From the NCBI GenBank assembly GCA_033763655.1, contig JANRKD010000012.1, forward strand, positions 26,606 to 90,605: 64,000 nucleotides of DNA, in the 5' to 3' direction. The notes beneath the pieces are model-generated. The model was not told the DNA's origin. It was given only the letters and a program-made list of their open reading frames with translations, and made no database searches. Source of the stretch: Alphaproteobacteria bacterium (GTDB lineage: Bacteria; Pseudomonadota; Alphaproteobacteria; Rickettsiales; UBA3002). Shown in pieces: positions 51,103 through 64,000 of this stretch (positions are counted from its first letter, which is position 1; each line of letters begins with the position of its first letter). Both the position numbers and the translations under genes were made by a program.

Positions 51103-52691
<1,589 letters not shown>

Positions 52692-54898: not shown

Positions 54899-54979
54899 CG
54901 AAGCTGTACGAACGATGGGTGGGCTGGCGTGGGGCTTGCCTAGGTGTCGCTTAGGGCTGGGATAGGGCTGGGCTTGGAC

Positions 54980-55507
54980 TTACGAAGCCGGGTGGATGAT
55001 GAATGTCACCACCCCATGCACCTTGAGTTCTTCGCCTTCTTTGATCAGGCGCGGCTCATAATCAGGATTTTCCGGCACCAGCATGATGTCACCATTCTGG
55101 CGATAAAGACGCTTCACGGTCAGTTCCCCGTCCACCGACACGATCACAATATCGCGATGCTCTGGCGTTTTGCCCAAATCGACCACCAGCACATCATCCT
55201 CGCGGATGCCTGCATCAATCATCGAGTCACCCGTCACGCGCACGAGATAGGTGCAATCCGGGTTCTTGATCATCAGCTCGTTGAGATCAATCGTATCATC
55301 CAGATGATCTTCCAGCGGCGTCGGGATGCCAGCTGGGACGCGGGACGAATACAGCGGGACTTTGTAACCACGGTTTTGCACAAACCTACACACATCCCCC
55401 ATCAGGCTGAGTGGAATGCGGATCGGCTTCGTTGCTTCGCCGTGTGGTCCTTTACCTTTTGGCCTTCCGGCACCCTTGCGTTTGCCGCCGTGCGATGTGT
55501 TCTTCAC
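54980..55507 (-). CDS. S24-peptidase (LexA/UmuD-like) autocleavable repressor candidate
   Basis: 175 aa with a GTG start and GAGGGA RBS. Basic N-terminus (GGKRKGAGRPKGKG), cleavage-site-like PAG-IP, catalytic GDSM, and TVKRL lysine. Confidence 0.7.
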   Translation of the reverse strand: MKNTSHGGKRKGAGRPKGKGPHGEATKPIRIPLSLMGDVCRFVQNRGYKVPLYSSRVPAGIPTPLEDHLDDTIDLNELMIKNPDCTYLVRVTGDSMIDAGIREDDVLVVDLGKTPEHRDIVIVSVDGELTVKRLYRQNGDIMLVPENPDYEPRLIKEGEELKVHGVVTFIIHPAS

Positions 55508-55527
55508 GCGAAGTTCCCTCGTAGGTT

Positions 55528-55576
55528 GTCAATGCAGTTGACGCTTCCTAGTATATTACTGTACATAATTCAAGAG
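55528..55576. promoter_or_regulatory. Divergent promoter/operator region: inverted repeat plus SOS-box-like site
   Basis: GTCAA-tgcag-TTGAC (55528-55542) overlaps a TTGACG -35-like hexamer. tactgtacataattcaag (55558-55575) resembles CTGT-N8-ACAG with an imperfect right arm. Confidence 0.3.
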
Positions 55577-55619
55577 GCATATAAAAGCATAATTTAGCAA
55601 GCAAAATCGGGAGGCTGGT

Positions 55620-56402
55620 ATGCCATTTCCGGAACGGGAGTATTACACATTGGAGCAAGCGGCACGGCGTTGGGCGGCAACACTGGAAGAAGTTCAGCAC
55701 GCCATTGTCGCAGGAAAACTTCATGCTTCGGCATGGGTTCCCTCAACTTTTGCCTATACGATTACCGAACACAGCCCCGATAGCGCCACCCGTTCCCCAG
55801 CGCAACCATTGGAAGGATATGTCCGCCTGATGCCGGAATCCTGCCGAATTATCTTCTCTCGTGGCGCGGTAGAGCGCCGGAAATTTCAGACAAACTTGCC
55901 CAACACTTATTTGCAGATTGTCGAGAGCCTGAACAAAATTGAGCTTCGCCGTGATGATTTGGTGATTCTGAACGATGATCTGCGCCAGTTCGAGCGTGAG
56001 TATCATCTGGTGGCCAGTAAACCGTGCAAAGTGATTAGTGTACACAAAATCAATGCCAAGTCCTCCGCCCGGACTCATGCGCTTTTCAGCTATCAGAACG
56101 GCTTCCGCTTTGTACGGCTGGATGGAATACAATTCACCTTCGGCGAGATACAGGCCGCCATCATCCGCCAGCTCTATGAAGCCAGCGCCACCGATAACCC
56201 GTGGGTGCATGGCAAAACGCTACTATCAAATGCCGGTTCCAATTCCATGATCATGCGTGACGTGTTCCGTCATCAACCCAAATGGAAGGAGCTGATCCAT
56301 ACCAACGGGCGCGGCTTCTACCGCCTGAGCCCTATGTGCAGCCCTATCTCGGCTCCACCTGAGCCCTACCTGAGTCACACCCAACAAGAGGAAAATGTTT
56401 AA
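55620..56402 (+). CDS. Hypothetical protein translationally coupled to umuD
   Basis: 260-aa ORF with RBS GGGAGG. N-terminal YYTLEQAARRWAATLEEVQHAIVAGKL looks like an excisionase/MerR-type HTH. The stop overlaps the umuD start (TAATG). Confidence 0.5.
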   Translation: MPFPEREYYTLEQAARRWAATLEEVQHAIVAGKLHASAWVPSTFAYTITEHSPDSATRSPAQPLEGYVRLMPESCRIIFSRGAVERRKFQTNLPNTYLQIVESLNKIELRRDDLVILNDDLRQFEREYHLVASKPCKVISVHKINAKSSARTHALFSYQNGFRFVRLDGIQFTFGEIQAAIIRQLYEASATDNPWVHGKTLLSNAGSNSMIMRDVFRHQPKWKELIHTNGRGFYRLSPMCSPISAPPEPYLSHTQQEENV

Positions 56403-56860
56403 TGACCGCTCTGCACGCACATCACCGCACGCATCCGCCGTTTCAGATTCTGGAACCGGCTGATTATCCTTCCAGCCTTCGCCTGCCACTATTCGCCTGC
56501 GCGGTGCAGGCTGGGTTTCCATCACCGGCGGATGATTACATGGAGGGAAAGCTCGATCTCAACAAGCATCTGATCCGCCACCCCACCGCGACATTCTTCC
56601 TGCGTGCCACCGGCAATTCAATGATCAAGGCAGGCATTCATCCCGGCGATATTCTGGTGGTGGATCGCAGCCTAGAGCCGCGTCACGGCAAAATTGTGAT
56701 TGCGGCGCTGGATGGACAGTTGACCGTCAAGCGCCTGCATAAATCCGCAAAAGGCACCTTCCTGATGCCTGAGAACGACGAGTTCAAACCCATCAAGATT
56801 GAGGATGGAAACGACGTGGTGATCTGGGGTGTTGTTACCACCGTGCTGCACGAGGTGTAG
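56402..56860 (+). CDS. umuD: Translesion polymerase V accessory subunit UmuD
   Basis: 152 aa. [19 protein letters not shown] (cleavage region), GNSM (Ser), TVKRL (Lys). Confidence 0.85.
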
Positions 56861-56861
56861 T

Positions 56862-58124
56862 GTGGCAAAAATTTTCGCACTCATCGACTGCAACAACTTC
56901 TATGCCAGCTGCGAGCGGGTGTTCAACCCGTCGCTGGTTAGCAGGCCGATTGTTGTGCTTTCCAACAATGACGGGTGCGTGGTGGCCAGATCGAATGAGG
57001 CCAAGGCTTTGGGCATTCCGATGGGTGCGCCGTATCACCAGCACAAAGCTGTGATCGAAAAAAACAGTGTGGCGGTGTTTTCCTCTAACTACCAGTTTTA
57101 TGGCGATATGTCGCAGCGAGTCATGGAATCCCTGCGCCTGCTAGTGCCGGATATGGAAGTCTATTCGATTGATGAGGCATTCATGCGGTTGGATGGTTTT
57201 ACCCATGTTGATCTGACGACTTTCGCCAGCGATATTCGCAGCAAAGTCCGCCAATGGACAGGCATTCCCACCTCTATCGGGATTGCGCCCACCAAAACGC
57301 TGGCCAAGATCGCCAATCATGTGGCGAAGAAACGCACTACCACCGGCGTGTTTGATATGCGCGACCCCATAGTGCAGGAGCAGATCATGCGCGATCTGCC
57401 CATCGAAGAAATCTGGGGCATCTCCTATCGCTGGGGAAAGAAGCTCCGCGCCATTGGCATCACCACGGCCTTGCAGCTGAAAAACAGTGATCCCAAGCAT
57501 ATCCGAAAGCATTTCAGTGTGGTGGGTGAGCGCATCGTCATGGAGTTGCGCGGTCTTTCCTGCCTCGATCTGGAACAAATATCACCGAAGAAGAATATCC
57601 TTTCCTCGAAATCATTCGGCAAGCTGGTGACGGATCGTGATCAGATCGAAGAAGCGCTGGCCAACTATGCCGCTCGTGCCTGCGAGAAATTGCGGCGGCA
57701 GAAAAGCAAAGCACAGGGGATTTATGTGTTCATCCGCACCAACCCCTTCCGTGATCGTGATCCGCAATATCGAAACGGCGTAATGCTTGGCCTTACACTT
57801 CCCACGTCAGACACGGCGCAAGTGATCGCTGTTTCCAAAGCACTTCTGAAATCAATTTATCGCAAGGGATACCGCTATCATAAGGCAGGCCTGATGCTGC
57901 TCGATCTGATCCCGGAGGCACAATGTCAATCGCATCTGTTTGTGGCGCGGGATGATGCAAAGCGAGACAGGCTGATGCGGGTGATGGATCAGATGAATCA
58001 GTCCATGGGAACCGGCACCGTGTTTCATTTGGCGCAGGGAACCAAGCGTGACTGGAGCATGCGCTGCGATAATCGCTCTCCACGCTACACCACCAAATGG
58101 GAGGAGTTGGGAAAAGTGGCATAA
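56862..58124 (+). CDS. umuC: Y-family DNA polymerase V catalytic subunit UmuC
   Basis: GTG start 2 nt after the umuD stop. [36 protein letters not shown]. Confidence 0.9.
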
Positions 58125-58196: not shown

Positions 58197-58385
58197 ATGA
58201 ACACGGACATAATGACAATCGATGAGGTAGCGGACTACCTCAAACTGAAACTGAAAACCGCCTATCACCTCGCGGCAAAGGGTGACATTCCCGGCTTCAA
58301 AGTCGGTGGATCATGGCGGTTTCGTCGCAGCGAGATTGAAAAGTGGATTAAACGGCAAGAAGCCGGGAAAAAGGAGAGCAAATAA
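58197..58385 (+). CDS. Excisionase-family helix-turn-helix DNA-binding protein
   Basis: 62 aa. MTIDEVADYLKLKLKTAYHLAAKGDIPGFKVGGSWRFRRSEIEKWI is the excisionase/MerR-type HTH pattern. The stop overlaps the hsdM ATG (TAATG). Confidence 0.7.
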   Translation: MNTDIMTIDEVADYLKLKLKTAYHLAAKGDIPGFKVGGSWRFRRSEIEKWIKRQEAGKKESK

Positions 58386-59956
58386 TGGCTGACACAAAAA
58401 AAGAACAGGAACGCTCAGCGTTACACTCCACCATTTGGCGAATCGCCAACGACCTTCGCGGCAGCGTTGATGGCTGGGACTTCAAGCAATATGTATTGGG
58501 CATCCTCTTTTACCGCTTCATCTCAGAAAATCTAAGCTCTTACGTGAATGAAAAACAAAAACAGGCTGGCGAGCGTAACTTTGACTACGCCGCATTAAGC
58601 GATAGCGATGCAGAGCGTGGTCGCGAACTGATTCTTGAAGAAAAAGGCTTCTTCATTCACCCCAGCGAGTTGTTCGAGAACGTTTGCAAACGCGCAGAAT
58701 CTGATGCCAACTTGAACGAAACGCTTGAGAAAGTGTTCAAAAATATCGAGGCTTCCGCCCAAGGAACCGACAGTGAAAGCGACATGAAGGGGCTGTTTGA
58801 TGACATTGATGTGAACAGCAACAAACTTGGTGCGACGGTCGTAAGGCGCAACGAAAAGCTGGTGAAGCTGCTCAATGCTATCGGCGAGCTGCCGATTGGT
58901 AATTATGGCGATAACTCCATCGATATTTTTGGCGATGCGTATGAATATCTGATGACCATGTACGCGGCCAACGCTGGGAAATCCGGTGGCGAGTTCTTCA
59001 CGCCGCAAGAGGTTTCTGAACTTCTCGCACGCATTACCGTGGTAGGAAAAACAGAGGTCAACAAAGTATATGATCCCGCATGCGGCTCTGGATCGCTGCT
59101 GCTGAAGTTTGCCAAGGTGCTGGGCAAAGAAAACGTGCGGAATGGTTTCTATGGTCAGGAAATCAATATCACGACTTACAACCTTTGCCGCATCAATATG
59201 TTTTTGCACGACATCAACTATGAACAATTTGATGTTGCACATGGTGACACACTCACCGACCCCCACCACTGGGATGATGAACCATTTGAAGCCATCGTGT
59301 CTAATCCGCCATACTCGATCAAATGGGACGGTGACGCAAACCCACTGCTGATTAACGATGATCGTTTTACGCCAGCGGGTGTTCTTGCGCCAAAATCAAA
59401 AGCTGATCTGGCGTTTGTGATGCACGCCCTTTCATGGCTGGCAACCAACGGTACAGCTGCAATCGTTTCTTTCCCCGGCGCGATGTATCGCGGCGGCGCG
59501 GAGCAAAAAATAAGGAAGTATCTGGTTGATAATAATTACGTCGATGCTGTGATCCAGCTCCCAACCGATTTATTCTTTGGAACCACCATCGCCACCTGCA
59601 TATTGGTTCTGAAAAAGAACAAATCCGACAGCAAGGTGCTGTTCATTGATGCAACAGCTGAGTTTGTGCGCGGTTCAGCGAAAAATAAGCTGAATGATGA
59701 ACACATTACGAAGATTCTGGATTGCTACGCCAGCCGCTCTACGGAAGAACATTTCTCCCGCCTTGTGCCGCATAAAGAGATCGAGGAAAAAGATTATAAC
59801 ATCAGCGTTGGTACTTATGTTGCGCCCAAGGATGAACGCAAAGCTGTCAACATCTCCGAACTGAATGCACGAATAGGTGACATTGTAAGTAGGCAAAATG
59901 AACTGCGCTCACAGATTGACGCAATTGTAGCCGACTTAGAGGGAGACGCCGCATGA
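58385..59956 (+). CDS. hsdM: Type I restriction-modification methyltransferase subunit HsdM
   Basis: 523 aa with an HsdM N-terminal domain, SAM motif YDPACGSGSLL, and catalytic NPPYS. Confidence 0.92.
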   Translation: MADTKKEQERSALHSTIWRIANDLRGSVDGWDFKQYVLGILFYRFISENLSSYVNEKQKQAGERNFDYAALSDSDAERGRELILEEKGFFIHPSELFENVCKRAESDANLNETLEKVFKNIEASAQGTDSESDMKGLFDDIDVNSNKLGATVVRRNEKLVKLLNAIGELPIGNYGDNSIDIFGDAYEYLMTMYAANAGKSGGEFFTPQEVSELLARITVVGKTEVNKVYDPACGSGSLLLKFAKVLGKENVRNGFYGQEINITTYNLCRINMFLHDINYEQFDVAHGDTLTDPHHWDDEPFEAIVSNPPYSIKWDGDANPLLINDDRFTPAGVLAPKSKADLAFVMHALSWLATNGTAAIVSFPGAMYRGGAEQKIRKYLVDNNYVDAVIQLPTDLFFGTTIATCILVLKKNKSDSKVLFIDATAEFVRGSAKNKLNDEHITKILDCYASRSTEEHFSRLVPHKEIEEKDYNISVGTYVAPKDERKAVNISELNARIGDIVSRQNELRSQIDAIVADLEGDAA

Positions 59957-61140
59957 GCAGGATTGATGATCTGATCGCCGAGCATTGCCCGAATGGTGTG
60001 ACCTTCAAAGAGCTAGGCAAGGTTTGCAAAATTAAAACAGGCGAAGCTGTAAGCAAACAACTAATTGTTTCAAAACCCGGTCAATATCCTGTAATCAACA
60101 GTGGACGAGAGCCATTGGGGTTCATTGATCAATGGAACACAGAAAATGATCCTATAGGCATTACTAGTCGAGGCGCTGGCGTTGGCTCTATCACATGGTG
60201 TGAGGGAAGATATTACAGGGGTAATCTCAATTATTCTTGTACCATAATTGATGAAGCCATGCTTTCAGTTCGGTTTCTGTTTTATCTGCTGAATGACATA
60301 CAAGATAAAATCCAATCCCTGTGTACCTACGATGGCATCCCCGCCCTGAATAAAGGCAATCTTGAGAAGCTGGAAATTCCTGTTCCACCGCCTCAAATAC
60401 AGAAAGAAATTGTTGACATCCTCGATGCGTTTACCAAGCTGGAAGCAGAGCTGGAAGCAGAGCTGGAAGCACGTCGTCAGCAATATGCGTATTATCGCAA
60501 CTCCCTCCTTTCATTCAATGAGATCGGCAGAAACGTAGAGAGAGAGAGAGAGAGCCGTTTCGTCCAATGGCGATCACTCGGAGAAATAGCTATGTATTCC
60601 GATACGCGCATTGATGCCGCCGCTTTAGATCATCACACCTATGTTGGTGTCGATAATCTATTGCAAAATCGTGCTGGCAAAACCATATCGAATTATGTTC
60701 CAGAATCTGGAAGATTAACGCATTATAAAGCCGATGATATTCTGCTAGGTAATATTCGGCCTTATCTAAAGAAAATCTGGCACTCGGATAATCAAGGCGG
60801 AACTAATGGCGATGTTCTAGTAATCCGTATAAAGCCTGAAGAAAAAGAGAATGTTCTGCCACGCTATCTTTATCAAGTTTTGGCTGATGATAACTTCTTC
60901 CATTATGCAGTGAAAACATCCAAGGGCGCGAAAATGCCTCGCGGTAACAAGCAACTTATAATGAAATACGAAATCCCCGTACCATCTCCTGAAGAACAAG
61001 AACAAATCGTTGCTATTCTCGATAAATTCGATGCGCTGGTGAATGATATTTCCAGCGGATTGCCTGCCGAAATTTCCGCTCGCCGTCAGCAATATGAACA
61101 TTACCGCAATCAGCTTCTGACATTCCAAGAGGCTGCTTAA
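59953..61140 (+). CDS. hsdS: Type I restriction-modification specificity subunit HsdS (type IC-like central repeat)
   Basis: 395 aa. Two target-recognition domains are separated by the conserved helix ILDAFTKLEAELEAELEARRQQYAYYRN. The C-terminal twin is ILDKFDALVNDISSGLPAEISARRQQYEHYRNQLL. Confidence 0.88.
   Translation: MSRIDDLIAEHCPNGVTFKELGKVCKIKTGEAVSKQLIVSKPGQYPVINSGREPLGFIDQWNTENDPIGITSRGAGVGSITWCEGRYYRGNLNYSCTIIDEAMLSVRFLFYLLNDIQDKIQSLCTYDGIPALNKGNLEKLEIPVPPPQIQKEIVDILDAFTKLEAELEAELEARRQQYAYYRNSLLSFNEIGRNVERERESRFVQWRSLGEIAMYSDTRIDAAALDHHTYVGVDNLLQNRAGKTISNYVPESGRLTHYKADDILLGNIRPYLKKIWHSDNQGGTNGDVLVIRIKPEEKENVLPRYLYQVLADDNFFHYAVKTSKGAKMPRGNKQLIMKYEIPVPSPEEQEQIVAILDKFDALVNDISSGLPAEISARRQQYEHYRNQLLTFQEAA
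60439..60471 (+). repeat. 12-bp tandem repeat (ctggaagcagag x2.75) encoding LEAE repeats in the hsdS central region
   Basis: Read directly; in frame. Confidence 0.8.
60537..60554 (+). repeat. (AG)9 dinucleotide microsatellite inside hsdS
   Basis: Read directly: agagagagagagagagag, encoding ERERE at the start of the second target-recognition domain. Confidence 0.85.
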
Positions 61141-62636
61141 TGCCAAATAGCCCTCTATACAGCTTGATCATGCACGGAAACCCAGAATTCTGGTCTGGCA
61201 ACGAGGGGTATGTTGACTTCCCAAGGGATAGGTTTCTTGAATACACAGATGATCACCTCAAAAATGAATTTCAGGCATTAGATCAGAATGTGGTCAATAG
61301 GCTCAAAACATTGCCAACATTATTCGCAGTAGAGCATGAAAATGCTGATACCAGAGTTGGAAAAGTAACTGATATTGAAGTTCAGCCAAGAAACTTGCGT
61401 GTTTATTATCAATTCAATGACAAGCAAAACCAACTCACTAAGGGAACATTAGAGGCACAAGAGTTGAGGCTAGACGCCGATAAGTATGAGTTTTACAGAA
61501 CCCATTGGGCACTCAAAGAAGCCAATTTGAACGATTTTCTGAAAGAGCGATCAAAAACCTTAGAAGGCATATTCGATAAAATAAAACAGGAATTGGATAC
61601 ACCGAATCCTGAAAAACCAGATCATACTAAGTTGATGGTTTTATATGCTACCAATTCTTCGGGGAAAACCAGAATTTCTAAGCGATTTGCTGATCAATAT
61701 GATGAGCAGGTGCTGTACTATAACGCTTTTACCGAAGATTTATTCAGCTGGGATAACGAAAATTATATTCTAAAAATTGATAATCGGGCTTGGATTTTTA
61801 GGTTCATCGAAGAACAGGGGCTTGATCGTCAAATCATAGATAGGTTTCAGGAATTCACGGGATCAAAATTAGAGCCTTTCTTTGAAATTCCAGAGGAAAG
61901 AATCACTTTTCGCATTCGCAAGGGTGATGATGGGAGTACAGAAAACATTAAAATTTCCAGAGGCGAAGAGAGCGTTTTTATCTGGTCTGTCTTCTACGCT
62001 ATTTTAGACGTTGGAATTGATGCTTTGAATGCCAAGGCAGAAGATAGGTCAACTCCTGACTTCGACAACATCCAGTATATTGTGATTGATGATCCGGTTT
62101 CCTCAATGGATGACACGCGGATTATTACCGTAGCTCTTGAGCTGGCAAAGCTGATCAAAAAATCAAAGAATCAGCTGAAATTTTTGATCACCACCCACCA
62201 TGCACTATTTTTTAACGTGCTGTTTAATGTGCGCGGCAAGAACTGGGATAGGAAAAACTACATTCTCTCAAAATCCGGAGCAGAGTTTATTCTGAAAGGC
62301 CAAGGCAGCGAATCACCCTTTGCGTATCATCATGTTGCCATGGCGGACATCGAAAAAGCAATTAAAGACAAAGACATCAAGAAATATCACTTCAACATCT
62401 TCCGCGCCCTTTTGGAGAAAACAGCCAATTTCTTGGGGTATGATAGTTGGAAGATGTGCCTGACAGGTAGTGGACATAGTGACGCGTTTGCCAAAATCAT
62501 CGACCATTACAGCCATGATCGGCTATCGGATTTGGAATATCGCGACATAACAAACGATGAGAAAGTGGAGTTTGTTGAAGCCTTCAACTTTTTCACGGAC
62601 AAGTATTTTAAGCAGGAAGTAATAACAAATGGCTAA
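61140..62636 (+). CDS. PrrC-like anticodon-nuclease/ABC-type ATPase homologue with an extra N-terminal domain
   Basis: 498 aa between hsdS and hsdR. Walker A LYATNSSGKT, signature-like ISRGEES, Walker B YIVIDDPVSSMDD, and TTHH. The C-terminal FRALLE...IIDHYSHD resembles the PrrC nuclease triad region (R..LE ... SH). Residues 1 to about 165 have no recognised homology. Confidence 0.6.
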   Translation: MPNSPLYSLIMHGNPEFWSGNEGYVDFPRDRFLEYTDDHLKNEFQALDQNVVNRLKTLPTLFAVEHENADTRVGKVTDIEVQPRNLRVYYQFNDKQNQLTKGTLEAQELRLDADKYEFYRTHWALKEANLNDFLKERSKTLEGIFDKIKQELDTPNPEKPDHTKLMVLYATNSSGKTRISKRFADQYDEQVLYYNAFTEDLFSWDNENYILKIDNRAWIFRFIEEQGLDRQIIDRFQEFTGSKLEPFFEIPEERITFRIRKGDDGSTENIKISRGEESVFIWSVFYAILDVGIDALNAKAEDRSTPDFDNIQYIVIDDPVSSMDDTRIITVALELAKLIKKSKNQLKFLITTHHALFFNVLFNVRGKNWDRKNYILSKSGAEFILKGQGSESPFAYHHVAMADIEKAIKDKDIKKYHFNIFRALLEKTANFLGYDSWKMCLTGSGHSDAFAKIIDHYSHDRLSDLEYRDITNDEKVEFVEAFNFFTDKYFKQEVITNG

Positions 62637-64000
62637 CACATCCTACAACACCATCGCCGAGAATCCGAATAGCACCGTAGTTGCCGAATATGTGCCGGAT
62701 AAAAAGGATGCAACACATTACCAGTCTGAAAACGAGCTGGAGCTGGAGTTCATTCGCCTGCTACGAAACAACGGCTATGAATATCTGACGATCAAAAGCG
62801 ATAGCGACCTTATCCAGAACCTGCGTGCGCAGCTTTCAAAACTCAATGATATGGTGTTTTCAGAAGCCGAATGGCAGCAGATGCTGACGCACTATCTAGC
62901 CAACAAAAACGAAGGCATTGAAGAAAAAACCACCAAGGTTCAGGAAGATCACATCTTCAACCTCAAGCGTGATGACGGCACTACCAAGAATGTGCGGATT
63001 CTGGACAAAGATAACATCCACAATAACTTTGTGCAGGTGATCAACCAATATGAAACTGAAGGCGCACGCAAAAACCGCTATGATGTGACGGTACTCGTCA
63101 ACGGCCTGCCGATGGTGCATGTGGAATTGAAGCGGCGTGGTGTTGCTATTCGGGAGGCATTCAACCAGATCAATCGTTATCAGCGTGATAGCTTCTGGGC
63201 TGATAGCGGTCTTTTTGAGTATGTACAGCTGTTCGTTATTTCCAACGGCACACATACAAAATACTATTCCAACACCACACGCAGCGCCCACATTAAGGAA
63301 CAGCAAGGCAAATCATCACGCAAGAAAACCAGCAACAGCTTTGAATTCACCTGCTGGTGGACAGATGCACAGAATAAGCGCATTGCCGATCTTGTCGATT
63401 TCTCCAAAACTTTTTTTTCTAAGCATTCCCTGCTTTCGATCCTGACGCGCTATTGCGTATTCACGACGGATAAATTGCTTCTGGTCATGCGCCCATACCA
63501 GATTGCAGCGGCAGAGCGCATTATGAACCGCATTGCTATGTCCACCAACCACAAGCAGCTCGGTACTTTGGAAGCTGGCGGATATATCTGGCACACCACA
63601 GGCAGCGGCAAAACGCTGACCAGCTTCAAGACGGCGCAACTCGCCACCCGCCTTGAGGGTATGGACAAGGTGCTTTTCGTCGTTGATAGAAAAGACCTCG
63701 ATTACCAAACGATGAAGGAATACGACAAGTTCCAAAAGGGTTCTGCCAATTCCAACACCAGCACAGCTATATTGACGAAGCAGCTTTCCGACCCGAATGC
63801 CAAAATCATCATCACCACCATTCAGAAGCTGGCCAAATTTATCTCTGCCAATAAGGGGCATAGTGTTTTTGATGGTCATGTCGTTTTGATTTTTGATGAG
63901 TGTCACCGTTCCCAGTTTGGTGAGATGCACACGGCAATCACCAAAGCCTTCAAGAACTATCATATTTTTGGTTTTACCGGCACGCCGATCTTTGGAGAGA
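62629..64000 (+). CDS. hsdR: Type I restriction endonuclease subunit HsdR (5' partial, continues past the window)
   Basis: Open frame from ATG 62629 (MANTSYNTIAENPN...), absent from the ORF track because it runs off the end. Contains NRYDVTVLVNGLPMVHVELKRRG (nuclease domain), the helicase Walker A motif (HTTGSGKT), and the DEAH box as FDECHRSQ. Confidence 0.9.
   Translation, partial: MANTSYNTIAENPNSTVVAEYVPDKKDATHYQSENELELEFIRLLRNNGYEYLTIKSDSDLIQNLRAQLSKLNDMVFSEAEWQQMLTHYLANKNEGIEEKTTKVQEDHIFNLKRDDGTTKNVRILDKDNIHNNFVQVINQYETEGARKNRYDVTVLVNGLPMVHVELKRRGVAIREAFNQINRYQRDSFWADSGLFEYVQLFVISNGTHTKYYSNTTRSAHIKEQQGKSSRKKTSNSFEFTCWWTDAQNKRIADLVDFSKTFFSKHSLLSILTRYCVFTTDKLLLVMRPYQIAAAERIMNRIAMSTNHKQLGTLEAGGYIWHTTGSGKTLTSFKTAQLATRLEGMDKVLFVVDRKDLDYQTMKEYDKFQKGSANSNTSTAILTKQLSDPNAKIIITTIQKLAKFISANKGHSVFDGHVVLIFDECHRSQFGEMHTAITKAFKNYHIFGFTGTPIFGE

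Follow-up and report, generated by a model that had tools for sequence, protein, structure and literature searches.

PrrC is the founding member of the suicide tRNases that are guarded by a restriction-modification (R-M) system. T4 Stp is the trigger of the Escherichia coli protein, EcoPrrC, and activation of PrrC beyond this case is poorly understood. RloC, another tRNase of the ABC-HEPN type, excises the wobble nucleotide, contains a long insert with a coiled coil and zinc hook and in most cases lies outside R-M loci. EcoPrrC is encoded within the type IC system EcoprrI, in the gene order hsdM-hsdS-prrC-hsdR, and type I R-M systems are described in the literature as the almost exclusive setting of PrrC. 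The nuclease domain of PrrC has been assigned to HEPN, with Arg349 of EcoPrrC as the arginine of the HEPN Rx6H motif (PMC3710099). Residues essential for the nucleoside triphosphatase (NTPase) of EcoPrrC are K46, T47, D215, D216 and H251, and the landmarks of its nuclease part are the Lys-anticodon-recognising peptide (LARP, 284-KYGDSNKSFSY-294), which specifies tRNA-Lys, followed by H295, H315, R320, N321, E324, R349 and H356; among these, N321 and R349 are strictly essential, and an R349K exchange is inactive (PMC3025547). The subject of the present analysis is X, a PrrC homologue of 498 amino acids encoded between hsdS and hsdR in a stretch of 64,000 nucleotides from contig JANRKD010000012.1 (assembly GCA_033763655.1), hereafter the window. 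X is interpreted here, with a probability of about 0.7, as a putative PrrC anticodon nuclease in a type IC-like operon that has acquired an additional sensor/regulator domain at its N-terminus (the N-domain).

By profile and residue comparison, X is a clear member of the PrrC family. The PADLOC PrrC profile (PDLC02360) matches residues 138-489 with an E-value of 1.9e-104 over profile positions 15-344 of 372, and Pfam AAA_13 scores 41.6 bits, above its cut-off of 36. The AlphaFold (AF2) model of full-length X, with a mean predicted local distance difference test score (pLDDT) of 85 and a predicted template modelling score (pTM) of 0.73, matched SMC/Rad50-type ABC heads in Foldseek, while a search of the PDB sequences with X matched nothing meaningful. 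All the ABC motifs named in the original prediction were found, namely ATNSSGKT at residues 170-177 with the Walker A residues K176/T177, a signature-like ISRGEES at 272, IDDPVSSMDD at 316 with D317/D318 of the Walker B/D-loop, and TTHH at 351 with H353 of the H-loop. EcoPrrC numbering was carried to X through the literal LARP string present in homologues (P0064) in alignment A1, the two proteins not being aligned directly; a blastn search of 5,426 E. coli genomes with X as query gave no match, and the E. coli hsd locus retrieved via hsdM is without prrC. In this numbering K176/T177, D317/D318 and H353 of X are equivalent to K46/T47, D215/D216 and H251 of EcoPrrC, and they are kept in 119-120 of the 120 homologues aligned. 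The distance from Walker A to Walker B is about 28 residues shorter in X than in EcoPrrC.

The nuclease part follows the same pattern. H397, H417, R422, E426 and H459 of X correspond to H295, H315, R320, E324 and H356 of EcoPrrC; the first four are invariant among the 120 homologues and H459 is present in 117. R422 and E426 lie in FRALLEK and H459 in HYSHD, and the arginine-to-glutamate spacing is 4 in both proteins, with a glutamate-to-histidine spacing of 33 in X vs 32 in EcoPrrC, so that the PrrC-like triad spacing noted in the first description of the gene holds. The NTPase and nuclease-triad residues are intact in X. The LARP-equivalent segment, on the other hand, is divergent (KGQGSESPFAY, aligned as KGQ--GSESPFAY) and only its F-x-Y-H end is conserved. 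It differs from the peptide of EcoPrrC, and therefore the target of X need not be tRNA-Lys.

X shares with EcoPrrC the gene order and coupling, the body of ABC NTPase and HEPN-type anticodon nuclease, the essential NTPase residues together with the five nuclease residues listed above, and the 12-bp repeat in the D1 helix of its HsdS; it differs in the presence of the N-domain, in the residues at the Arg349 and Asn321 positions and in the lack of the tRNA-Lys LARP. RloC resembles X in combining an ABC NTPase with a related HEPN nuclease, in the Arg/Glu/His triad and in the match to AAA_13. X, however, is only 498 amino acids long, shows no long coiled coil in the AF2 model and is encoded within an hsd operon, and in these respects it does not fit RloC. 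Short-form PrrC proteins of about 365 amino acids (e.g. P0015 and P0012) have the same types of variant at K452 and A423 (see below) and occupy the same slot between hsdS and hsdR, but they are without the N-domain.

In a survey of 80 loci of PrrC homologues from GTDB species representatives, hsdS lies directly 5' and hsdR 3' on the same strand in 77, including all 7 long forms. The placement of X, which had been predicted to be that of prrC in a type IC operon, is therefore shared with nearly the whole family, and the hsdS-X-hsdR arrangement with its coupling is the norm for PrrC and nothing special. PrrC systems embedded in R-M operons were already known; the long form represents a new version of such a system and is less exotic than had been proposed.

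The unusual part of X is its N-terminal extension; the usual layout of PrrC has two domains in about 360-400 amino acids, with the P-loop near residue 40. Its Walker A lysine is K176, compared with K46 in EcoPrrC, and the predicted shift of this motif is thus real; the extension, however, amounts to about 135 amino acids (130 by the motif offset), not to about 165 as first thought. Residues 138-165 align to the usual N-terminus of PrrC, the PADLOC profile beginning there at its position 15, and the short forms start with 'MAKGKFKSIESVCARIKKDLDTPNPEKPDHTK'. The model of X also retains a helix (141-153) and a β-strand (163-170) ahead of the P-loop, which contradicts the earlier suggestion that the N-terminal strand of the ABC domain had been replaced. 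As modelled, the N-domain is added to the start of the ABC domain and not substituted for it.

Modelled in isolation, the N-domain reaches a pLDDT of 92.5 and a pTM of 0.87 and forms a compact α/β fold with the predicted topology β1-β2-α1-α2-β3-β4-β5-loop-β6-α3. The close PrrC homologues fall into two length classes, one of about 360-375 amino acids with Walker A near residue 38 and another of about 480-530 amino acids with Walker A near 160-170. The long forms, which carry the N-domain, account for 37 of the top 120 PrrC homologue clusters and come from several classes. Their N-domains have 21 invariant positions, among them W18, R31-F-L-E34, T36, P59, F62, E65, E67, T71, G74, E117, R120, H122-W-A124 and K126; over the whole N-domain family described below, W18, R31, E34, T36, P59, F62, E65 and G74 are conserved, as are E117, R120, T121, H122, W123, A124 and K126. 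The ABC-HEPN body of X is 83% identical to the short form P0015 and 78% identical to the nearest other long form. Since the body is nearer to a short form than to other long forms, gain, loss or exchange of the N-domain has evidently occurred between closely related proteins, and its presence and absence among these relatives mark it, on sequence grounds, as an optional add-on. In two homologues, P0017 (404 amino acids) and P0022 (399 amino acids), the protein sets in partway through the N-domain ('...YELYRTHWAIKE...'). These may be cases of a truncated domain remnant or of a mis-called start, and both alternatives are compatible with recurrent loss of the module.

Could the long reading frame itself be spurious, through a wrongly called start or a sequencing error that fused two genes, so that X would be an ordinary PrrC of 360 amino acids? 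The public gene call P0001 (488 amino acids) does use another start, Met11, and P0017 and P0022 begin within the domain. The call at Met11, however, lies 10 codons late and omits the conserved first β-strand (window 61140-61170). M1 is preceded by a GAGG Shine-Dalgarno sequence 7 nt upstream, residues 6-12 (LYSLIMH) correspond to the conserved β1 of the N-domain, and relatives of the domain usually start with 'M-Y/F-N-L-L'; on the evidence of both the Shine-Dalgarno sequence and the homologues, M1 is preferred over Met11. Moreover, the frame is open and continuous, it has no Met where the short forms start, the fused architecture is shared by 37 independent homologues from several classes, and the full-length model is confident. 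An artefact is accordingly hardly conceivable.

The extension had been said to match nothing. This holds for Pfam, NCBIfam, PADLOC and the PDB sequences, where no match was found even when the PDB was searched with an N-domain profile, but not for sequence space at large. The only curated match is to PHROG 4962 (phrog_4962, function unknown; E 1.6e-10), which has the full-length architecture of an N-domain followed by FRG. When the N-domain alone was searched through a word index, one match was returned, which reflects a limit of the index and not rarity; this search was replaced by an exhaustive one, in which a profile of the domain was run against 1.84 billion cluster representatives. The latter matched 1,147 protein clusters at E <= 1e-3 and 546 at E <= 1e-10. 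The N-domain is thus no one-off module, being present in 37 of the top 120 PrrC homologue clusters and ahead of many other effectors; it recurs without annotation and is not a common annotated domain of ordinary PrrC or RloC proteins. The proteins that contain it are annotated as hypothetical in every source, and no earlier name or description of the domain was found in the literature searched, to which access was incomplete.

In 125 of the best 149 matches the N-domain stands at the N-terminus. In the other 24 (P0133, P0145, P0149, P0152, P0168 and others) it is preceded by 70-470 residues; in P0133 this segment is winged-helix-like, and more architectures exist. When 144 N-domain proteins were analysed with Pfam, the fusion partner was CAP12-PCTIR_TIR in 36, TIR_2 in 12, Pkinase in 8, Abi_C (HEPN) in 7, SEFIR in 5, AAA_13 in 3, KAP_NTPase and FRG in 2 each, and GmrSD_N, SLFN_AlbA_2, EAD2, EAD11 and AbiJ_NTD3 in 1 each. 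The partners match PDC-S35, PDC-S15, PD-T4-6 and QatA/PifA, and the PADLOC models always cover the effector part alone. In a survey of the best 80 of 554 GTDB loci with an N-domain, in which 6 kb of neighbourhood was inspected, the main classes were an N-domain with TIR (about 295 amino acids) and an N-domain with FRG (about 435 amino acids). By these profile matches the N-domain is a large uncurated family and would be a mobile module shared by abortive infection (Abi) effectors, not an invention specific to PrrC.

What the N-domain-TIR proteins, the N-domain-FRG proteins (phrog_4962/PDC-S15 effector), the N-domain-kinase proteins (PD-T4-6-like effector) and prokaryotic Schlafens with swapped sensors have in common with X is the homologous N-terminal module itself. 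They also share the layout of a swappable sensor ahead of a toxic effector. However, these proteins stand alone and lack an R-M guard, whereas in X the module joins an effector that is regulated by its ABC domain and guarded by R-M even without it.

Stand-alone N-domain genes (137-148 amino acids) exist as well, and three of the four overlap a downstream TIR_2 gene. These pairs come from unrelated lineages, namely Sporomusa, Desulfosporosinus and a metagenome contig (Table 1), and are possibly split N-domain-TIR fusions, or else frameshifted ones. As Rosetta-stone evidence, the split pairs imply that module and effector work together. Clustering of the open reading frames (ORFs) neighbouring N-domain loci revealed no conserved partner family, and a dedicated gene producing a signal for the N-domain was rejected on this ground. 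The absence of such a partner gene argues for a self-contained sensor or regulator and against a dedicated signal-generating enzyme.

An overlapping N-domain gene upstream of a TIR gene is also reminiscent of an antitoxin-toxin pair, and both TIR and PrrC effectors require oligomerisation (PMC3025547). The N-domain may then be a ligand-free module, autoinhibitory, antitoxin-like or oligomerising, which keeps the effector masked until proteolysis or displacement of the module. Antitoxins and pure scaffolds, however, rarely retain an invariant constellation of polar and aromatic residues across unrelated effectors, and short PrrC proteins are regulated without an N-domain. This explanation is considered unlikely.

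The same constellation could instead belong to an active site, so that the N-domain would have an enzymatic activity of its own, such as that of a small hydrolase or nuclease acting on a nucleotide or nucleic acid, and would not be a passive sensor. E34, E65, E117, R120, H122 and K126 are indeed near-invariant across phyla and effector types, and the existence of stand-alone copies fits this idea. Against it, neither profiles nor folds linked the domain to catalytic families, a DUF4297-type nuclease appearing only at E ~0.3 and a template modelling (TM) score of ~0.3, and nearly every copy of the domain accompanies a genuine toxic effector, in a typical sensor-effector layout. An enzymatic N-domain is therefore regarded as quite unlikely. 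A reading of the conserved acidic residues as a PD-(D/E)xK nuclease was set aside, having no support from fold or profile.

In X, the N-domain might also serve to dock or tether the protein to the Hsd complex, replacing the contacts of short PrrC forms, instead of sensing anything. The long-form PrrC loci are all hsd-embedded, and the latency of EcoPrrC depends on its association with EcoprrI (PMC3710099, PMC3874165). But short forms, with a body of up to 83% identity to that of X, occupy the same hsd position without the N-domain, the split N-domain/TIR pairs are not linked to R-M genes, and the domain heads TIR, FRG and kinase effectors in surveyed loci of which 77 of 80 have no hsd-like gene within 6 kb. 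With hsd-like neighbours at only 3 of the 80 loci, a general R-M docking role of the domain was ruled out, and docking in X is very improbable.

A sensor or regulator, as the original prediction had suggested, remains the best reading of this folded domain without curated annotation, and the N-domain is probably an infection sensor or regulator. Its constellation of polar and aromatic residues persists in different phyla and on unrelated effectors, and such invariance fits a conserved ligand or catalytic pocket better than recognition of fast-evolving phage proteins. Together with the weak resemblance of the fold to YTH and Lon-N (PUA-like) domains, the pattern points to a conserved ligand, e.g. 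a nucleotide or nucleic acid, the latter perhaps modified, and a variable phage protein is less likely as the trigger. PUA-like readers are common in defence proteins. When the model of the N-domain was searched with Foldseek, the best PDB match was the YTH domain 6zot_A, aligned over nearly the full length (E 7e-3, probability 0.96, TM 0.44), and the other matches were also PUA-like, including YTHDF1 at a TM of up to 0.48, the Lon N-domain and the RsmE N-domain. The likeness to YTH, EVE and Lon-N lies in similar size and a mixed α/β, barrel-like topology; with TM at only 0.44-0.48, it is a resemblance and not membership. A fold search of BFVD with the N-domain gave no significant match. That the N-domain is a PUA-like reader of nucleotides or nucleic acids is taken as a tentative lead of somewhat less than even probability, and not as a finding.

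Several points weigh against the interpretation of X as an anticodon nuclease with an added sensor. First, X has Lys (K452, window 62493-62495) at the position of R349 and Ala (A423, window 62406-62408) at that of N321, both of which are essential in EcoPrrC. Second, the fold matches of the N-domain are weak, all with TM < 0.5 and none with E < 1e-3, and no sequence-profile link to PUA-like families was found in Pfam or the PDB sequences. Third, the ligand class read from the model is speculative. Fourth, the role of the N-domain is derived from its architecture alone. As to the first point, Lys at the Arg349 position is the majority state in the PrrC subfamily of X (96 of 120 homologues), while Asn at the N321 position occurs in only 19 of 120, with Ala, Ser or Thr as the usual residues. 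This distribution suggests that K452 and A423 represent a co-evolved variant of the active site at the level of the subfamily, and not decay.

The latent anticodon-loop cleavage of PrrC is silenced by the R-M complex, and an anti-restriction factor and dTTP activate it, with GTP hydrolysis. By analogy with EcoPrrC, the Hsd complex would hold X latent (PMC3025547, PMC3710099, PMC3874165), and a phage that disables restriction would activate it. Activated X would then cut the anticodon loop of a tRNA to leave 2',3'-cyclic phosphate and 5'-OH ends, with NTP binding and hydrolysis by the ABC domain gating the cleavage. The independently folding N-domain would, to judge from the architecture, supply a second and self-contained regulatory input. 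A bolder version is that the N-domain is an undescribed ligand-sensing family, maybe PUA-like, which reads a modified nucleotide or nucleic acid made during infection and switches on unrelated Abi effectors, making X a dual-input nuclease; taken as a whole, this version is possible but rather doubtful. If it were true, X would fire either on a disabled R-M guard or on the N-domain ligand, and PrrC could be activated independently of Stp-like anti-restriction peptides. A natural subgroup of PrrC with a discrete N-terminal module provides a handle on PrrC regulation. The chief value of the finding nevertheless lies in the module itself, which flags a widespread defence domain that curated libraries lack. 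Its small size, confident model and strong conservation should make the ligand tractable to find, and once identified this ligand would provide an annotation for hundreds of single-gene defence candidates together.

X had been predicted as an open reading frame in a five-gene hsd operon, and the frame was borne out on the plus strand with its full 498 codons (Table 1). The five genes HTH-hsdM-hsdS-X-hsdR, where HTH stands for helix-turn-helix, also kept their proposed identities in profile searches, through HTH_17, N6_Mtase with HsdM_N, Methylase_S and TIGR00348 hsdR, respectively. All four junctions overlap as described, by TAATG at HTH/hsdM, ATGA at hsdM/hsdS, TAATG at hsdS/X and the 8-nt ATGGCTAA at X/hsdR, and X is translationally coupled within this run of five same-strand genes. 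A consensus scan inside the operon found promoter-like and terminator-like sites no more often than expected by chance. The HsdM protein is 50-78% identical to the HsdM neighbours of PrrC homologues (80 loci), and the closest E. coli HsdM shows 56% identity. The small HTH gene, probably the regulator of the operon, is a difference from EcoprrI; the same small gene lies 5' of hsdM at loci L002, L004 and L040.

In the type IC systems EcoR124I, EcoDXXI and EcoprrI, a hallmark is a 12-bp repeat in the D1 region of hsdS which encodes a 4-residue helical TAEL unit, the D1 and D2 helices being alike, and the copy number of TAEL sets the spacer length of the recognition site (PMC3874165). In the hsdS gene of the window, a perfect 12-bp tandem repeat, AGCTGGAAGCAG, is found in 2.9 copies at 60437-60471 and encodes EAEL repeats in the central helix, and the D1 (EARRQQYAYYRNSLLSF) and D2 (SARRQQYEHYRNQLLTF) helices of HsdS are near-identical. 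The repeat is EAEL here and TAEL in the three named systems, as an analogous 12-bp/4-residue unit, and these features point to a type IC-like hsd operon around X. An (AG)9 run is also present in hsdS at 60537-60554.

Table 1. Positions of the genes and domains discussed; positions refer to the window unless a locus is named.
Feature	Position	Strand	Evidence or remark
tRNA-Ala(TGC)	51103-51178	+	ARAGORN
Large serine recombinase	51114-52691	-	Resolvase + Zn_ribbon_recom
umuD-like S24 peptidase gene	56402-56860		With the umuC-like gene, immediately 5' of the R-M operon
umuC-like Y-family polymerase gene	56829-58124		32-nt overlap with the umuD-like gene
HTH_17 gene, MerR/excisionase-type, small	58197..58385	+	Pfam HTH_17 E 3.9e-18; first gene of the operon
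hsdM, type I methyltransferase subunit	58385..59956	+	N6_Mtase E 3e-116; HsdM_N E 1e-20
hsdS, specificity subunit, two target-recognition domains	59953..61140	+	Methylase_S E 5e-39, two stretches
X, PrrC homologue, 498 aa	61140..62636	+	Open reading frame
Accessory N-terminal domain, X residues 1-138	61140..61553	+	Alignments A1, A2, A4; AF2 model; profile search
ABC-type (Rad50/SMC-like) NTPase domain, X residues 139-366	61554..62237	+	PADLOC PrrC, Foldseek, invariant residues
HEPN-type anticodon-nuclease domain, X residues 367-498 + stop	62238..62636	+	EcoPrrC numbering transfer, conservation counts, AAA_13
hsdR, restriction/translocase subunit	62629..64000, runs off the window	+	TIGR00348 hsdR E 9e-112; PADLOC REase_I E 5.5e-184
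Stand-alone N-domain + TIR_2 gene pairs	L242 5001-5856; L246 5001-5871; L248 5001-5880		Overlap 11-38 nt

The operon is located on a low-GC island integrated beside a tRNA-Ala gene. The G+C content is 0.40-0.49 in the operon (about 0.40 in X) vs about 0.59-0.65 in the host region, and the drop begins at the tRNA-Ala gene and the serine recombinase gene (51103-52691). The stop-proximal end of the recombinase gene overlaps about 65 nt of the 3' part of the tRNA gene on the opposite strand. This pair looks like the attachment (att) site and the integrase of an island whose cargo comprises umuDC and the R-M/PrrC genes. For the two island ORFs that lie 5' of umuD on the plus strand (217 and 260 amino acids; 54944-56402), no Pfam match was obtained at E <= 1e-4. 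The assignment of the host to an alphaproteobacterium is plausible at the level of class and goes no finer; the host Rpe has its best match in Alphaproteobacteria, at <=67% identity to representatives. A phage replisome-organiser-like gene is also present on the island.

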